A DNA stretch of 46,052 nt from a virus: positions 1 to 46,052 of IMG/VR virus record IMGVR_UViG_3300045988_022330; one strand, given 5' to 3'. Below are positions 26,988-40,577 of the stretch, one piece after another. The notes below the pieces were generated by a model. It was not told the origin of the DNA and made no database searches. It saw only the letters and a program-made list of their open reading frames with translations. The translations under genes and the position numbers were made by a program. How positions within the stretch are numbered: the first letter of the stretch is position 1; the number at the start of each line of letters is the position of its first letter.

Positions 26988-27500
26988 TCAAACCTCCTTT
27001 GCTGTCAAATCGTACTCCCATACATAGCCGCCCGCCGTTTTATATACTCCTTTACAACATCGGGTAATCGTTATATTTTTTATTCCCGTTTTTCTTTCCG
27101 CTTCCCTTATGGATTTATACCGGGCAATTTCGTTTCCGGCTTTTGAACGTTGTATTACAGCTTTAGCAATTTTATTATGTTTGCCGTTATATGTATTATT
27201 ATACTGATTATCGCACCACTCCAAATTATTGGCATTATTATTAAACTTGTTTTCGTCCTTATGATTTATTTGTTTCCAATTATTTGGATTTGGAATAAAT
27301 TCCATTGCAACTAATCTATGTACCATTAATGCAGTTAGTTTGCCGGACTTATATAACCTTACTTGCAAATAGCCCTTACCGCTTACTGTTGGCTTTAGCA
27401 ACTTACTTTTTCCAGTTCTTCCATAATTGAGGCTTTTTACATTACCATAATTGGATATTTGGTAATTCTCAAAACCAGATATATCTTTCCAAACTTCCAT
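26988..27500 (-). mobile_element. Free-standing HNH homing endonuclease (NUMOD4-like N-terminus + HNH_3-like core + C-terminal DNA-binding module), 170 aa
   Basis: WKDISGFENYQISNYGNVKS...MVHRLVAMEFIPNP...INHKDENKFNNNANNLEW. The C-terminus (ARYKSIREAERKTGI...I..CC.G..KTAGGY.WEY) looks like an IENR1/NUMOD1-type module. Paralogue of 32718..33227. AT-rich DNA. The true ATG at 27500 lies after a TATCTTTG box. Confidence 0.8.
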
Positions 27501-27512
27501 ATCTTTTTTTTG

Positions 27513-27541
27513 CAAAGATAATAAATGTTTTTCATTTGCAA
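27513..27541 (-). promoter_or_regulatory. Promoter-like site for the HNH/terminase (late) operon
   Basis: -7 box TATCTTTG at 27513..27520. An imperfect -33 (cTTGc) lies 18 nt upstream. Confidence 0.45.
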
Positions 27542-29268: not shown

Positions 29269-29625
29269 TTATTTGTTATTACTATCCGGGGCGGCGGGTG
29301 CCTTAACTCCGGCTATTGTTCCATTGTAATTAAACTCCAACGCACAATCTTTAAATTCTCCGGCAATCCTCAAAAAACGCCAATAAATCGTTTTTCTGTC
29401 ATTCCTATGGAATTTATCGCATTTCCTACCGATTGCGGGGCAATCCTCCCTTTTGATTTTACAACGAACGCATCGTTGCAGGAAAATTGCGGGGTTGTTG
29501 TTGGCTAATCGAGCATCCGCCGCCGTCCATATTTCCGCTATCAATACCATACCCCGGTAAACGCAACGTTCGCCGGGGCTGTATTCCTTATCCGGGTCAA
29601 ATGGTGCGGGCTGTCTTATTCTCAT
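29269..29625 (-). CDS. Cysteine-rich hypothetical protein (118 aa)
   Basis: ORF with an ATGA overlap to the upstream lipoprotein gene. Confidence 0.55.
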   Translation of the reverse strand: MRIRQPAPFDPDKEYSPGERCVYRGMVLIAEIWTAADARLANNNPAIFLQRCVRCKIKREDCPAIGRKCDKFHRNDRKTIYWRFLRIAGEFKDCALEFNYNGTIAGVKAPAAPDSNNK

Positions 29626-29918
29626 TTGTCGCCCGCCTCACTTACATACTCAAACAATGCGTCCAAATCTTCCTTTGCGCCTCTAACGGTAACTCTTACC
29701 CGGTTGCCTCCGGCTAATGCGGTCTCAATGATTTGGCAATTGTAACGTTCGGCGTTAATCTGTAACATCGCCGCCGTTGCGTTCGTGACAAACTCGTTTC
29801 TTTCTTCCATGCTCTCGGTTTTTTTAATTGATAAATACGCTTCCATCGGTTCGCTATCTTGTTGGCAGGCTCCTAACAAAAGCGTTGCCAAAGATAACAA
29901 TAAAATCTTTGCTTTCAT
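29622..29918 (-). CDS. Lipoprotein (98 aa)
   Basis: The internal ATG at 29918 gives MKAKILLLSLATLLLGAC..., a signal peptide plus lipobox (LLGAC). The longer track ORF (to 30134) conflicts with a better-supported upstream ORF. Confidence 0.65.
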   Translation of the reverse strand: MKAKILLLSLATLLLGACQQDSEPMEAYLSIKKTESMEERNEFVTNATAAMLQINAERYNCQIIETALAGGNRVRVTVRGAKEDLDALFEYVSEAGDK

Positions 29919-29922
29919 AACT

Positions 29923-30168
29923 TTACTTTCTTTTAATCCATATAAACCGTATGCCGATACCGACAAACAATATTTTCGCCTCAACATCAACGTAACGGTC
30001 GTAACCGTTGACCGCATCCACGGACACGCCGGGAATAACAAACCAACTCTTATATTTCCAATATTCCCGGACGTAACCACAAACGCCAACCCGTCCGATA
30101 TGGAACCCAATTTGCGCCGTATGTACGTCGCCATTCTTTCGGATAACTCCTATTCTTTTCTTACTCAT
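29923..30168 (-). CDS. Small hypothetical protein (81 aa)
   Basis: ATGA overlap with the ASCH gene stop. Its own stop is 4 nt before the lipoprotein ATG. Alternating hydrophobic pattern suggests beta-strands. Confidence 0.5.
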   Translation of the reverse strand: MSKKRIGVIRKNGDVHTAQIGFHIGRVGVCGYVREYWKYKSWFVIPGVSVDAVNGYDRYVDVEAKILFVGIGIRFIWIKRK

Positions 30169-30668
30169 TTTTCTTTCTTATTCAATAGTTCGTAACTCTC
30201 TTTATCTATCACTACTACCGTCGGATATTCGGTTATCACTCCTTTTGTGTACACCAAATTGTAAATGCCCAATTGCCCTTTAATTGGGAACTCAACAACC
30301 CGGCGGGGGTTACGCATCAACCACCCGAAGCCCTTTGTAATGTTTTTGCGCTTTTCGGACGGTATGCGGGTATTCTCCCAATCTTCCGGCGTAAAATCTT
30401 TAATCGGCTTCACGTCGTATAATTCAACCAATCCCAATGTAACCCCACTTTCATAACCGGGAATTACAGGATTAGCGGACGAACAAATCATTAAATCGCC
30501 TCGGTATGGTGTATTCTTACTGCGTACCTCAATGCACTTTTCGCCGTAAACAACTCCGTTATCCTTATAAGCCGCCGTAACCAATTGCGTTGCATACGGG
30601 TTTTTAACGGTTAATGCCCGCCAACGGTCATGTTGGGCGGGGTTGAAATCCTTGTTAGTAAACTGCAT
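30165..30668 (-). CDS. ASCH (PUA-like fold) domain protein (167 aa)
   Basis: The ATG at 30668 (MQFTNKDF...) overlaps the radical SAM stop by 14 nt. ALTVKNPYATQLV...GEKCIEVRS..T.YRGDLMICSS...G..LG.VELYDV matches my memory of the ASCH domain pattern. Confidence 0.6.
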   Translation of the reverse strand: MQFTNKDFNPAQHDRWRALTVKNPYATQLVTAAYKDNGVVYGEKCIEVRSKNTPYRGDLMICSSANPVIPGYESGVTLGLVELYDVKPIKDFTPEDWENTRIPSEKRKNITKGFGWLMRNPRRVVEFPIKGQLGIYNLVYTKGVITEYPTVVVIDKESYELLNKKEK

Positions 30669-31515
30669 AATCGTTATTATCTTGGTTAAACAAATCGTAA
30701 TTTGCCGGGACACAATAACTGGGCAATAAATCTCGGTTAATCCCGGACGCTTTAACAAAACTCTCTTTCCAATACAACCGGGGCGTTGTGTGCGGGTGCG
30801 CCTCCCAATATTCGGCAACGTCGTTGTAAAATCCTAATGTTTCCTTTTTCGTATATCTGCAACCGCTTTGCAGCCCTATTTTAAATAAGTCAACAAAAGG
30901 GTATGATAACGCAATTACAGAAAATGCCCGGTCAAACATTCCCGGCGGTATTGGTTCAACGCTCGCAAAGGTTGGGAATCCGTGCTGTTTTGCCCTTGCT
31001 AACGTGCTTATCCGCATCCGGTTGGGGCTTGCATTTGGTTCTAATTCGTCGCATCCCGTCAACGTGGAACCAATCGCAATACGTGTTTTGTCCCATCCCG
31101 CCGACGCTTCGACAAAATCAATGAGTATATTAATACCCTCGGCGCATTTGCTCAATACCTTAACCGGGACGTTGTGGCGTTGACAAACGCCAATCGCTTG
31201 ACGGGTCAACCGTTGCGTTTCCGGTAATAACGGGTCGGTTGTAAAAGAGAAAAACAAACCCGTTTTTTGCAATTCTTCTTTATGCTTCAACAACTCATTC
31301 GTAAATATGTCGATTGCATACGGATATTCTCGCAAAGTCTTTTTCAATTCGGGGCGGTTGCCTCCCAATACCTTTGCCCCAATACCTTTGCGCAAATAAC
31401 AATAGGTGCAACCATTTGAGCAACCTACAAAGAAATTGGCGGCGTTCTCGGCATATTCCGCCGCCTTTCCCTTTGGGCTATAAATAACCCGTCCGTTTAT
31501 TCCTCCCATATCCAT
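30655..31515 (-). CDS. Radical SAM enzyme, SplB / COG1533 (DNA repair photolyase)-like (286 aa)
   Basis: CX3CX2C cluster in the context PKGKAAEYAENAANFFVGCSNGCTYCYLRKG, close to the N-terminus as in spore-photoproduct-lyase-like proteins. Confidence 0.65.
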   Translation of the reverse strand: MDMGGINGRVIYSPKGKAAEYAENAANFFVGCSNGCTYCYLRKGIGAKVLGGNRPELKKTLREYPYAIDIFTNELLKHKEELQKTGLFFSFTTDPLLPETQRLTRQAIGVCQRHNVPVKVLSKCAEGINILIDFVEASAGWDKTRIAIGSTLTGCDELEPNASPNRMRISTLARAKQHGFPTFASVEPIPPGMFDRAFSVIALSYPFVDLFKIGLQSGCRYTKKETLGFYNDVAEYWEAHPHTTPRLYWKESFVKASGINRDLLPSYCVPANYDLFNQDNNDYAVY

Positions 31516-32284: not shown

Positions 32285-32736
32285 TAACCTAACATTAATT
32301 GTTGATACTCGGCTTTCATTAACTCAATTAACCGCATATTTGCCGGGTAAATTCTCATTCGTTCCCGGTTGCCGTTTTCCCATTCGTTGTGGTGTTCAAA
32401 GCAAAGTATATTTATATTTCTTGCATCATGCGCCGCCTCCGGGAATGCTCCACGGGTTAAAATGTGGGAACAATACACGGCGGAATAATTCCGCAATGGT
32501 TTTAAACATTCCTCGCATCGGTGCGGCTTATTATCCCATACCCAACGAAAAAACCGTTCATTTGCCGCCATGATATTTGCACCACGTCCGAAAACACAAT
32601 GTCCGAACAACTCCCTTTGTATCTCAACCCTCAAACGAATATCCATTGTAAAGTTACGAATATCCAATAATGGTTGATACCCACGGGATACAACATAATT
32701 ATAACTTTCTCGGTCGTCTATGATAATTGTTTCCAT
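32284..32736 (-). CDS. HNH/beta-beta-alpha-Me-type nuclease-like protein (150 aa)
   Basis: HRCEECLKPL...CSHILTRG..PEAAHDARNINILCFEHHNEWE has the Cys pair and the His/Asn/His spacing of HNH nucleases. Confidence 0.5.
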   Translation of the reverse strand: METIIIDDRESYNYVVSRGYQPLLDIRNFTMDIRLRVEIQRELFGHCVFGRGANIMAANERFFRWVWDNKPHRCEECLKPLRNYSAVYCSHILTRGAFPEAAHDARNINILCFEHHNEWENGNRERMRIYPANMRLIELMKAEYQQLMLG

Positions 32737-33227
32737 ACAAAACCATTATAATTGCGGGTTTTCCCCTCTATGTTTTTACAAATACCTTTTCGCAAAAATC
32801 CGCTTTTCTTTGCCTCGGCAAATGATATATACGTTTTTATCAAATTACCGTTCAAATCATATTGCGCCAATCCTTTTGCAGCGTAATGCGGTTTATTACT
32901 CAATATACGCTTTAACTTATCAACCGTTACCGGGTTATTGCTATTTTCTTTTGGTGTAACCCAACGTAAATTGCAAATTCGGTTATCAGTTACATTTCCG
33001 TTTATGTGGTCAACTTGTTGTTTGTTGTCCGGGTTGGGAATGAATGCCGCCGCAACTAATCTATGAACTAAAAAAACGTGCCTTTTGCCGTTCTTGTATA
33101 ATCCAATGGCATTGTATCCATTTATTTTCCACGGCTTCAACATTACATCAGTTTTCACACTAAATACATTTCCCGTATCGTCAATACAATAACCGGGGAA
33201 TCCTCCAATTTCTTTTAAATTTTCCAT
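32718..33227 (-). mobile_element. Free-standing HNH homing endonuclease (NUMOD4-like + HNH_3-like), 169 aa
   Basis: GGFPGYCIDDTGNVFS...LVHRLVAAAFIPNP...VDHINGNVTDNRICNLRWVTPKEN. The C-terminus (ISFAEAKKSGF...I.....NYNGFVWK) looks like a DNA-binding module. ATG at 33227; the track start is a TTG three codons upstream. Confidence 0.8.
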
Positions 33228-33252
33228 ATTTGCCAACTTTATAAGTAAGCCA

Positions 33253-39390: not shown

Positions 39391-39945
39391 TTAAAATAAA
39401 CGGTTGTGCATTTGTTGGGGCAAATTTTCCAAAACCCAACGGGGGTTATTCTGTAAAATGAACCGTCCAAAGTGCATTATTAACGTTGCGTCCGCATTCC
39501 ATAACGCCGGGGTAATCTCCGGGTATAATTTCCCCGCAATATCCCGGAACCGTCGTTTGCGGTCTGCCTTTTCCTCCTTTTTCCCTTTTACCTTTATACG
39601 CAATTTAAGGTCATTTTGCCACTTCATAGCATTAACCAAAACAAATGGTATTTCGGCGACGGTTATAATGGCTTTCAAATGCTCAAAGTTTTGCAACATC
39701 TTTTGAATGCGGTATAATTTACCCATGTTTGCCCCGGTATCGCCAACCGTTACGTCGTCCGGGCGAACACTCAATTTTTCCAAAAAGATAATCGGTGTGC
39801 AAATCTCTTTGTAATAGTTCAGAAAATCCCGTATCTCGTTAATGTCTTTAGGCATCTTAATTGCCGTTGCGTTGTGGTTGGGTCGCCAAACCACGATACC
39901 CCCGGCGGCTCCGGGGTCAATCCCAATAATACAATCTATTTTCAT
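39391..39945 (-). CDS. RuvC-like Holliday junction resolvase (184 aa)
   Basis: The N-terminal IIGIDPGAAGGIVV motif is the first catalytic Asp strand of the RNase H/RuvC fold. Later acidic residues (FLEK, NADATLI) fit the same fold. TAATG overlap with the methyltransferase stop. Confidence 0.6.
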   Translation of the reverse strand: MKIDCIIGIDPGAAGGIVVWRPNHNATAIKMPKDINEIRDFLNYYKEICTPIIFLEKLSVRPDDVTVGDTGANMGKLYRIQKMLQNFEHLKAIITVAEIPFVLVNAMKWQNDLKLRIKVKGKKEEKADRKRRFRDIAGKLYPEITPALWNADATLIMHFGRFILQNNPRWVLENLPQQMHNRLF

Positions 39946-40577
39946 TAGAATAAATATTGTGTAATAGTTTTACTCTTAATTCTTTCAATTGCTTTATTAT
40001 AATAATCTGTATCTAATTCACAACCAATAAATTGCAAATTCAATTTTTCTCTCTTATTGATTATATCTATTGCAATTGCAATACTTCCACTTCCTAAATG
40101 AGTATCTAAAATTTTATAACCTTTTTCGGCATTACGCATTATAAGCCATTCATATAATTCTATTGGTTTCTGTGTTGGATGTATCTTATTTTGTTCTTTC
40201 ATAACACTCAACGACCATATTTTTGCAGGTTTTTGAATTGAAGACCATGCGTATTCACACATTGCCAAAGAAAAATTTTCCGGCTGTTTTTTATCCCATA
40301 TATAAAAACCTTGCGACGGGGGCAAATCAAAATAATTTCCGCCCCATATTATTTGGTTTTTGCTCACTCTAAATAATTCATCAAAATATTGTTTGCTTGG
40401 TATTTCATTATCCCAATCTTTTTTCTTGTGCATTTGTCTAACCGGATTTTTACTAATCCCAATACCATACGGCGGGTCAACAATAGCCAAATCAAAATAT
40501 TTATCCGAATATCTTTTCATTAAATCTAAATTATTCTCATTTGTTATCTCTATGTTATCATTTATTTTCATAATCAA
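39945..40577 (-). CDS. DNA methyltransferase, N6-adenine/N4-cytosine family, beta-class motif order (210 aa)
   Basis: Motif IV DPPYG (LAIVDPPYGIG) precedes the AdoMet motif I (ILDTHLGSGSIAIA). HPTQKP is also present. No cognate nuclease is adjacent. Visibly AT-rich DNA. Confidence 0.85.
   Translation of the reverse strand: MIMKINDNIEITNENNLDLMKRYSDKYFDLAIVDPPYGIGISKNPVRQMHKKKDWDNEIPSKQYFDELFRVSKNQIIWGGNYFDLPPSQGFYIWDKKQPENFSLAMCEYAWSSIQKPAKIWSLSVMKEQNKIHPTQKPIELYEWLIMRNAEKGYKILDTHLGSGSIAIAIDIINKREKLNLQFIGCELDTDYYNKAIERIKSKTITQYLF

Follow-up and report, generated by a model that had tools for sequence, protein, structure and literature searches.

We describe a block of genes in the DNA of a gut phage in which a radical SAM (rSAM) enzyme gene appears to have been gained on its own, and not as half of a two-gene system with the ASCH (PUA-like) gene that follows it. 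The stretch analysed (the window) comprises the 46,052 nucleotides (nt) of IMG/VR record IMGVR_UViG_3300045988_022330, and the block, at positions 29622-31515, holds the genes for the rSAM protein, the ASCH protein, a small protein (orf81) and a lipoprotein, with a further coupled gene, orf118, beyond it. An earlier note on this DNA had proposed that the rSAM and ASCH proteins, in a block with the smaller genes, could work together on a non-canonical DNA base, or against a host defence that targets one. The reading we favour, although we put it a little below an even chance, is that the rSAM protein is a stand-alone accessory enzyme in a run of independent early genes and likely performs a self-contained, DNA-directed reaction. 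The window region is approximately 85% identical at the nucleotide level to Parabacteroides phages PDS1 and PD491P1 and Bacteroides phages C1_85S2P and BKO1-3, and 78% identical to Alistipes phage AS73P1; its source is a PDS1-like siphophage of gut Bacteroidales. The records of these relatives already annotate the genes concerned, as "radical SAM enzyme", as "ASC-1 homology domain protein" or "ASCH domain-containing protein", and as "lipocalin lipoprotein".

The evidence that separates the rSAM gene from its neighbours comes from comparison of loci. Our clade set consisted of 83 loci, of which 80 came from viral collections and 3 from genome collections, supplemented with GenBank phage loci, and 85 loci carry both genes. 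Throughout the clade the order ssb - rSAM - ASCH - orf81 - lipoprotein gene - orf118 is kept, and the junction between the rSAM and ASCH genes takes several forms: an 11-14-nt overlap at 40 of the 85 loci, a spacer of about 168 nt at 32 (PDS1 being one, L001 6474-6641) and 255-296 nt at 11. The 168-nt spacer is itself conserved, contains no convincing open reading frame (ORF) and bears no similarity to the Lar-like restriction-alleviation gene that fills the longer rSAM-ASCH gap in BKO1-3. At 19 of the 85 loci (for example L002 3782-4327) ASCH and orf81 are separated by an inserted HNH gene some 600 nt long, and the segment that follows ssb is a hot-spot for insertions. Outside the clade, Elizabethkingia phage TCUEAP2 presents the array HNH - orf117 - ssb - [49-aa ORF] - ASCH - orf81 - lipoprotein domain - orf118 - orf251 at 40-65% identity to the window genes, with the rSAM gene alone missing, and because TCUEAP2 keeps the array in this form the rSAM gene is best described as an indel in a conserved array. 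Croceibacter phage P2559S likewise has ASCH directly after ssb and no rSAM gene, rSAM is missing from 8 of the 14 phage records in which ASCH occurs, and four other Parabacteroides phages carry ASCH without it; the ASCH gene of the rSAM-negative relatives follows ssb directly or nearly so.

The same separation is seen at greater distance, for which 77 loci in Bacteroidales genomes were collected, each with an rSAM homologue of 37-50% identity and assigned to prophages or to integrative and conjugative elements (ICEs) as judged by their neighbours. No neighbour family of any kind is conserved across these 77 loci, and in the reverse test, which took 80 viral loci centred on the ASCH subfamily related to that of the window, not one had an rSAM gene within 6 kb of ASCH. 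At 12 of the 77 an ASCH homologue, which hhalign relates to the window family with 98.4% probability, is found no more than 6 kb from the rSAM gene; at two of those 12 (L087 and L094) it is the immediate neighbour, which is at chance level, since random placement among some 13 genes predicts that figure. The resulting frequency, 16%, sits in the span covered by generic module genes around the distant rSAM homologues (YopX 18%, Tad2-like 14%, N6/N4 methyltransferase 26%). A specific link between rSAM and methyltransferase was considered as well and dismissed, the 26% at rSAM loci comparing with 31% at ASCH-anchored control loci without rSAM. Fusions of rSAM to ASCH were absent from the 120 + 120 homologues listed and from 150 representatives.

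Against this background the functional pair put forward by the earlier note, in which one protein would install or repair a non-canonical base and the other read or process it, possibly in counter-defence and with orf81 and the lipoprotein as members of the unit, seems to us distinctly improbable. It draws on the adjacency with its 14-nt overlap in the window, on the synteny of the pair throughout the PDS1 clade, on the 12 distant loci with ASCH nearby and on the Lar-like gene of BKO1-3, which would mark the site as an accessory or anti-restriction hot-spot. Comparative work has further predicted that ASCH domains read modified bases such as m6A, and often links them to N6A methyltransferases (PMC4738411). 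Weighing on the other side are the complete TCUEAP2 array without rSAM, the independent distribution of the two families outside the PDS1 clade (ASCH being absent from 65 of the 77 distant rSAM loci), an overlap that within the clade gives way to gaps of 168-296 nt or an intervening gene, the lack of fusions among the homologues listed, and the absence of base-modification pathway genes detailed below. A PADLOC defence-system scan of the block gave no match. Nor is the tight coupling remarkable, because half of the junctions in the window are equally tight: 31 of the 61 between consecutive minus-strand genes are overlaps or gaps of at most 10 nt. A conserved two-gene system recognisable by co-occurrence and adjacency across unrelated elements was thus not found, and the literature on rSAM, ASCH and phages yielded neither a work treating the pair nor a characterised system, in agreement with the earlier note on this last point. 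We read the comparative evidence to mean that the rSAM gene was acquired independently, as an accessory gene, and that ssb is the stable partner of ASCH.

The neighbours of the distant homologues further include Tad2-like genes (PF11195; 11 loci), YopX (13-14), PAPS-reductase-like (7) and HD dNMP-phosphatase-like genes (4), and some homologues (L125, L135, L147 and others) adjoin PRTRC-system/ThiF-like genes of the sort that Bacteroidales conjugative elements typically carry. Such neighbours indicate that the rSAM family circulates among ICEs and phages. Whole PDS1-like contigs of approximately 46 kb (L084, L085 and L086) are also filed in metagenome-assembled genomes labelled Dysgonomonas sp., Bacteroidaceae and "Propionibacterium sp.", and the contig labelled Dysgonomonas sp. 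shares 99% identity with the window over the rSAM protein; these are probably binning carry-over, and not evidence of host range.

Turning to the rSAM protein itself, the CX3CX2C cluster lies near the N-terminus, where the earlier note had placed it (NFFVGCSNGCTYCYLRKG, C32/C36/C39), and its three cysteines are invariant in 40 homologues. The window protein matches Pfam Radical_SAM (E 2.8e-5) and phrog_13321 (E 2.8e-13), and its AlphaFold2 (AF2) model (pLDDT 90.3) shows alternating beta and alpha elements and retrieves rSAM enzymes in Foldseek, so that, as is typical of the radical SAM superfamily, a (beta/alpha)6 partial barrel carries the cluster at its N-terminal end. Spore photoproduct lyase (SPL; 4FHC/4FHF) accounts for the six best Protein Data Bank (PDB) matches of this model (E 6e-7 to 2e-6, TM score about 0.61/0.52), followed by the peptide-modifying rSAM enzymes SuiB and SkfB. 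SPL is also the sole family that the rSAM family profile finds in the PDB, at a HMMER E-value of 0.06, while the BFVD viral structure library returns only generic or unnamed rSAM entries. The curated families are approached without being entered. The Pfam SPL model gives the window protein 14 bits (E 0.022) where 27 are required, which leaves it outside that model, and NCBIfam PA0069 (NF033668, COG1533) covers residues 24-199 at E 6.4e-13 and 48.4 bits against a cut-off of 360, making the protein, judged by profile score, a relative of the PA0069 family and not a member. All 40 homologues match Pfam Radical_SAM (best E 2.6e-10). Below the curated thresholds, all 40 also match PA0069 (best E 6e-14), 29 match Rv2578c, 25 rSAM_mob_pairB and 17 DUF5131, with weak matches to Pfam SPL (PF20903) for 18 and to the SPL model TIGR04070 for 15. 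The SplB/COG1533-like assignment of the earlier note therefore stands at the level of the superfamily and fails as membership of a curated family: the protein belongs to the SPL/COG1533 branch and lies outside every curated family in it. The family is large, with 292 representative clusters at E <=1e-30 and 1330 at <=1e-10 in an exhaustive search, and the window gene evolves under constraint (ratio of non-synonymous to synonymous substitution rates, dN/dS, about 0.1 against relatives).

Two diverged rSAM representatives, P0244 (635 aa) and P0249 (684 aa; L248 1176-3230), are fused to an N-terminal domain of some 360-415 aa with a DG(Q/V)HR motif. To the eye this domain resembles DNA-binding domains of the ParB/DndB type, an assignment for which searches of Pfam, the PDB and phage databases gave no confirmation. 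C-terminal extensions of about 150-260 aa contain no recognisable domain.

The distance to every curated family leaves room for the view that the substrate is RNA, a protein or a metabolite and that the placement among DNA-metabolism genes is incidental, a view we consider unlikely. The PA0069 score (48 bits for a cut-off of 360) speaks for it, as do the uncharacterised status of PA0069, Rv2578c and DUF5131 themselves and the peptide-modifying enzymes that come up behind SPL; the paper on PDS1 names gp34 solely as a radical SAM enzyme and adds only loose speculation on quorum sensing (PMC10773633). What tells against it is that the best structural and profile matches fall consistently in the SPL clade, both characterised members of which act on DNA, and that replication, recombination or DNA-methylation modules surround the rSAM gene in every lineage examined.

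Those two members are SPL and gp53 of phage M6, and the catalytic residues of the former can be traced in part. The radical-relay tyrosines Y96 and Y98 of Geobacillus thermodenitrificans SPL align with Y38 and Y40 of the window protein, Y38 being invariant and Y40 kept in at least 90% of the 40 homologues. SPL repairs 5-thyminyl-5,6-dihydrothymine in DNA and employs a cysteine as hydrogen-atom donor, located on an A-C-T-S-D strand (C140 in the G. thermodenitrificans enzyme, C141 in that of Bacillus subtilis) or, in the clostridial alternative, near residue 76. Opposite Cys140 a low-confidence hhalign alignment places the invariant F91 of the rSAM family (F-T-T-D), and no cysteine aligns with the region of S76. 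As we set out below, it is this substitution that would take the enzyme away from the classical SPL cycle.

M6 gp53 is an SPL-like rSAM enzyme that isomerises N-alpha-glycinylthymidine to its C-alpha form in DNA in the hypermodification pathway to 5-aminoethyldeoxyuridine (5-NedU), a pathway that needs 5-hydroxymethyldeoxyuridine (5-hmdU) synthesis, a kinase, aGPT-Pplase and a pyridoxal phosphate (PLP) enzyme (PMC8989533). The rSAM family profile aligns with gp53 at an hhalign probability of 92% (E 7e-7, 136 columns). The rSAM protein could then be a gp53-like DNA-modifying enzyme serving hypermodification or anti-restriction, or could reverse a modification inflicted by host defence, and to this we assign a fairly low probability. 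In its favour, next to the homology itself, are the sub-threshold NCBIfam pattern and the phenylalanine in place of Cys140 that gp53 has as well, the occurrence of the family among orphan methyltransferases, Tad2-like and other accessory genes in phages, prophages and ICEs, and the two representatives fused to the DG(Q/V)HR domain, for as long as the unconfirmed ParB-like assignment of that domain is entertained. The partner enzymes are what is lacking. A Pfam scan of the 53 window proteins together with the annotation of relatives turned up none of the thymidylate-synthase-like, kinase, aGPT-Pplase and PLP genes. Genes of the deazaguanine and glycosylation kind were likewise missing, and what appeared was an N6/N4 methyltransferase, an orphan, beside replication and recombination genes of a generic sort. 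Of an M6-type thymidine hypermodification pathway the rSAM homology is thus present, and the partner genes (dUMP hydroxymethylase, 5-HMUDK, aGPT-Pplase and PLP decarboxylase) were not found. The 77 diverse loci, with no conserved partner and with methyltransferase co-occurrence at background, point the same way.

We therefore return to the stand-alone accessory enzyme. The conserved array is ssb - ASCH - orf81 - (lipoprotein domain) - orf118 - orf251, tightly packed without forming a dedicated system, and the rSAM gene is an accessory gene that entered it after ssb and ahead of ASCH in the lineage whose hosts are strictly anaerobic Bacteroidales. Its product is a [4Fe-4S]/SAM enzyme of the SPL superfamily, of the COG1533 / PA0069 / Rv2578c / DUF5131 branch, that functions without a conserved partner. 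It would act on phage or element DNA, most probably by directly reversing or resolving pyrimidine lesions or adducts already present there, using 5'-deoxyadenosyl radical chemistry with Y38 and Y40 in the role of their SPL counterparts. The setting would be a dark, anoxic gut, in which photolyases would be unable to work. Since the Cys140 hydrogen donor is missing, either the substrate or the finishing step should differ from that of canonical SPL. That the reaction takes place on DNA and is self-contained we infer from the activity of both SPL and M6 gp53 on pyrimidines in DNA and from the absence of pathway partners around the rSAM gene. The ASCH protein would be a separate, ssb-linked nucleic-acid-binding protein that retains the Lys/Glu dyad of GKER-type amidohydrolases, and the lipoprotein an unrelated accessory protein targeted to the envelope.

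The genomic context agrees with such an enzyme, and the hosts do so in part. The rSAM gene is found among ssb, recombination and nuclease genes in phages, in prophages and in ICEs, the Bacteroidales concerned being mostly anaerobic. The "splB" genes of COG1533 are SOS-regulated in Bacteroidetes and other phyla (PMC8565304). The rSAM-positive phages infect Bacteroides, Parabacteroides and Alistipes, and the two closest syntenic relatives without rSAM infect Elizabethkingia and Croceibacter. The latter two genera are aerobes and the Bacteroidales hosts are anaerobes, so the hosts partly fit an oxygen-labile enzyme.

Several points weigh against the stand-alone reading. The correlation with anaerobic hosts is partial, given that some Parabacteroides phages have ASCH without rSAM. 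The alignment of the rSAM family with SPL is weak outside the cluster motif (hhalign probability 33%, E 4.5e-4). F91 at the position of Cys140, as in M6 gp53, argues against a classical SPL repair cycle; the near-invariant Cys268, a candidate picked out from the alignment of homologues, could substitute for Cys140. For a DNA substrate the analogy extends to just two relatives of characterised function, with 13-19% identity. The 12 distant loci with an ASCH gene within 6 kb belong here too, and our ASCH detector may miss divergent PUA-like neighbours. By eye, phrog_874, phrog_8581 and phrog_625 look ASCH-like; searches with Pfam, PHROGs, hhalign and PDB profiles did not confirm them (the best PDB match being that of phrog_625 to 1XNE, E 0.98), and they were left uncounted. 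A wider formulation, for which we would claim only a slim chance, makes phrog_13321 a new, self-sufficient DNA-directed radical enzyme of anaerobic gut phages and ICEs that erases a lesion or a defence-imposed modification, or installs a base change, with the ASCH protein of the PDS1 clade possibly processing the same substrate.

The ASCH fold proposed in the earlier note is borne out. Although Pfam ASCH (PF04266) scores the 167-aa protein just below its cut-off (E 0.0026, 18.9 versus 21.2 bits), phrog_3193 matches at 9e-23, some close homologues carry a precomputed PF04266 match, and phmmer against the PDB finds the ASCH domain of human TRIP4 (E 2e-4). The AF2 model (pLDDT 81) retrieves only ASCH structures in Foldseek, namely TRIP4 (E 1.5e-7, its double-stranded DNA complexes included), EOLA1, TTHA0113 and ZmASCH. 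The GxKxxExR octapeptide reads G42-x-K44-x-x-E47-x-R49, with K44, E47 and R49 invariant in 32 homologues and G42 conserved, and dN/dS is about 0.07 against relatives. Modelled fold and octapeptide together identify the protein as a GKER-type ASCH domain. A 2026 preprint describes GKER-type ASCH proteins, among them the very structural neighbours just named, as N4-acetylcytidine amidohydrolases acting through a Lys/Glu dyad; by analogy, a reader of modified bases may be one of two live possibilities for the phage protein, an amidohydrolase the other.

Among the remaining genes, orf81 is conserved across the clade (65% identity to its TCUEAP2 counterpart, dN/dS 0.08-0.25), as is the cysteine-rich orf118 (50% identity, dN/dS about 0.1), and neither matched a family in Pfam, PHROGs or NCBIfam scans. 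The lipoprotein call was correct. Signal peptide and lipobox LLGAC (MKAKILLLSLATLLLGAC) conform to the pattern [LVI][ASTVIG][GAS]C at the end of a signal peptide, from which lipidation is predicted, and they are kept in 68 of 79 relatives. The gene is annotated "lipocalin lipoprotein" in PDS1 and C1_85S2P. Its mature domain has a signal-less homologue of 63 aa in TCUEAP2 (L164 4565-4756), which suggests, as far as these sequences go, that a cytoplasmic protein was retargeted to the envelope in the PDS1 lineage. It is probably an independent accessory gene of host-surface or exclusion type, exclusion or surface modification being a guess. An upstream start (frame 29622-30134, open for 72 codons above the ATG and overlapping orf81) was rejected, the extension being unshared by most relatives.

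The layout of the region is given in Table 1. Every coordinate and junction of the earlier note was reproduced, as was the position of the block directly after ssb. All six genes from ssb to orf118, orf81 included, have dN/dS values of 0.06-0.25 against relatives, and this purifying selection marks them as real coding genes. The wider DNA-metabolism region contains homing-endonuclease-like genes on both flanks, an uncharacterised pair of DUF2400 and ATPase genes, and an orphan methyltransferase gene, owing to which the phage DNA is probably methylated.

Table 1. Genes of the ssb-rSAM-ASCH region and further genes of the window mentioned in the text
Feature	Position	Strand	Remarks
ssb, 135 aa	31521..31928	-	Pfam SSB 2e-27; phrog_44 2e-41; directly upstream of the block
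rSAM gene, 286 aa	30655..31515	-	phrog_13321; SPL/COG1533-like; NFFVGCSNGCTYCYLRKG with C32/C36/C39
ASCH (PUA-like) gene, 167 aa	30165..30668	-	phrog_3193; GKER octapeptide; ATG within the rSAM gene, 14 nt before its end
orf81, 81 aa	29923..30168	-	ATGA overlap with the ASCH stop; conserved small protein
Lipoprotein gene, 98 aa	29622..29918	-	Start 4 nt past the orf81 stop; signal peptide and lipobox MKAKILLLSLATLLLGAC
orf118, 118 aa, Cys-rich	29269..29625	-	Coupled by ATGA to the lipoprotein gene; belongs to the conserved array
HNH_3/NUMOD4 homing-endonuclease-like gene	32718-33236	-	Flanks the region
HNH_3/NUMOD4 homing-endonuclease-like gene	26988-27515	-	Flanks the region
DUF2400 protein gene, 382 aa	35785-36933	-	PF09674, E 6.8e-61; "N-glycosylase/DNA lyase" in the PDS1 annotation
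SMC/RecF-like AAA ATPase gene, 481 aa	36975-38420	-	Adjoins the DUF2400 gene
Orphan N6/N4 DNA methyltransferase gene	39945-40577	-	DPPY motif; Pfam N6_N4_Mtase 5.6e-14

To our knowledge, SPL and phage M6 gp53 are the only radical SAM enzymes known to act on DNA. If the stand-alone reading is true, the present family would be a third DNA-acting branch, borne by phages and ICEs, widespread in Bacteroidales elements and apparently working alone, and would bring radical chemistry on DNA into the virome of the anoxic gut. A culturable model in which the function of the rSAM protein can be tested is available in phage PDS1, grown on P. distasonis. A negative lesson follows for the annotation of densely packed phage genomes: adjacency and translational coupling are not evidence of a functional system, and ASCH is to be grouped with ssb instead of rSAM.

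Compared with the systems known, the rSAM protein has in common with SPL the radical SAM partial TIM barrel, the cluster motif G-C-x3-C-x-Y-C-Y-L (CHYCYL in 4FHC) and the T-S/T-D and E-P-x-x-S...R motifs. It differs in its low identity (15-19%), in its length (286 versus 340 aa, the N-terminal 70 or so residues of SPL being absent) and in its home, which, unlike that of SPL, is phages and mobile elements of non-sporulating anaerobes. With M6 gp53 it shares the superfamily, carriage by a phage, the sub-threshold NCBIfam pattern (PA0069, rSAM_mob_pairB and Rv2578c) and a phenylalanine at the position of SPL Cys140, whereas gp53 is longer (480 aa) and is clustered with a PLP enzyme, aGPT-Pplase, the 5-HMUDK kinase and a thymidylate-synthase homologue, all of which the window rSAM gene lacks. 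PA0069, Rv2578c and DUF5131, labelled "DNA repair photolyase" in COG1533, provide the best profile matches, yet the rSAM family scores 7-8 times under their curated cut-offs, and phrog_13321 forms a separate clade carried by phages and mobile elements. The ASCH protein, finally, has the fold and the GxKxxExR motif of TRIP4/ASC-1, EOLA1 and Thermus thermophilus TTHA0113, the ASCH domain of TRIP4 having been crystallised with double-stranded DNA (PDB 8YFI and 9KYL), and is set apart from these three by an identity of at most 24% and by being a phage protein linked to ssb.

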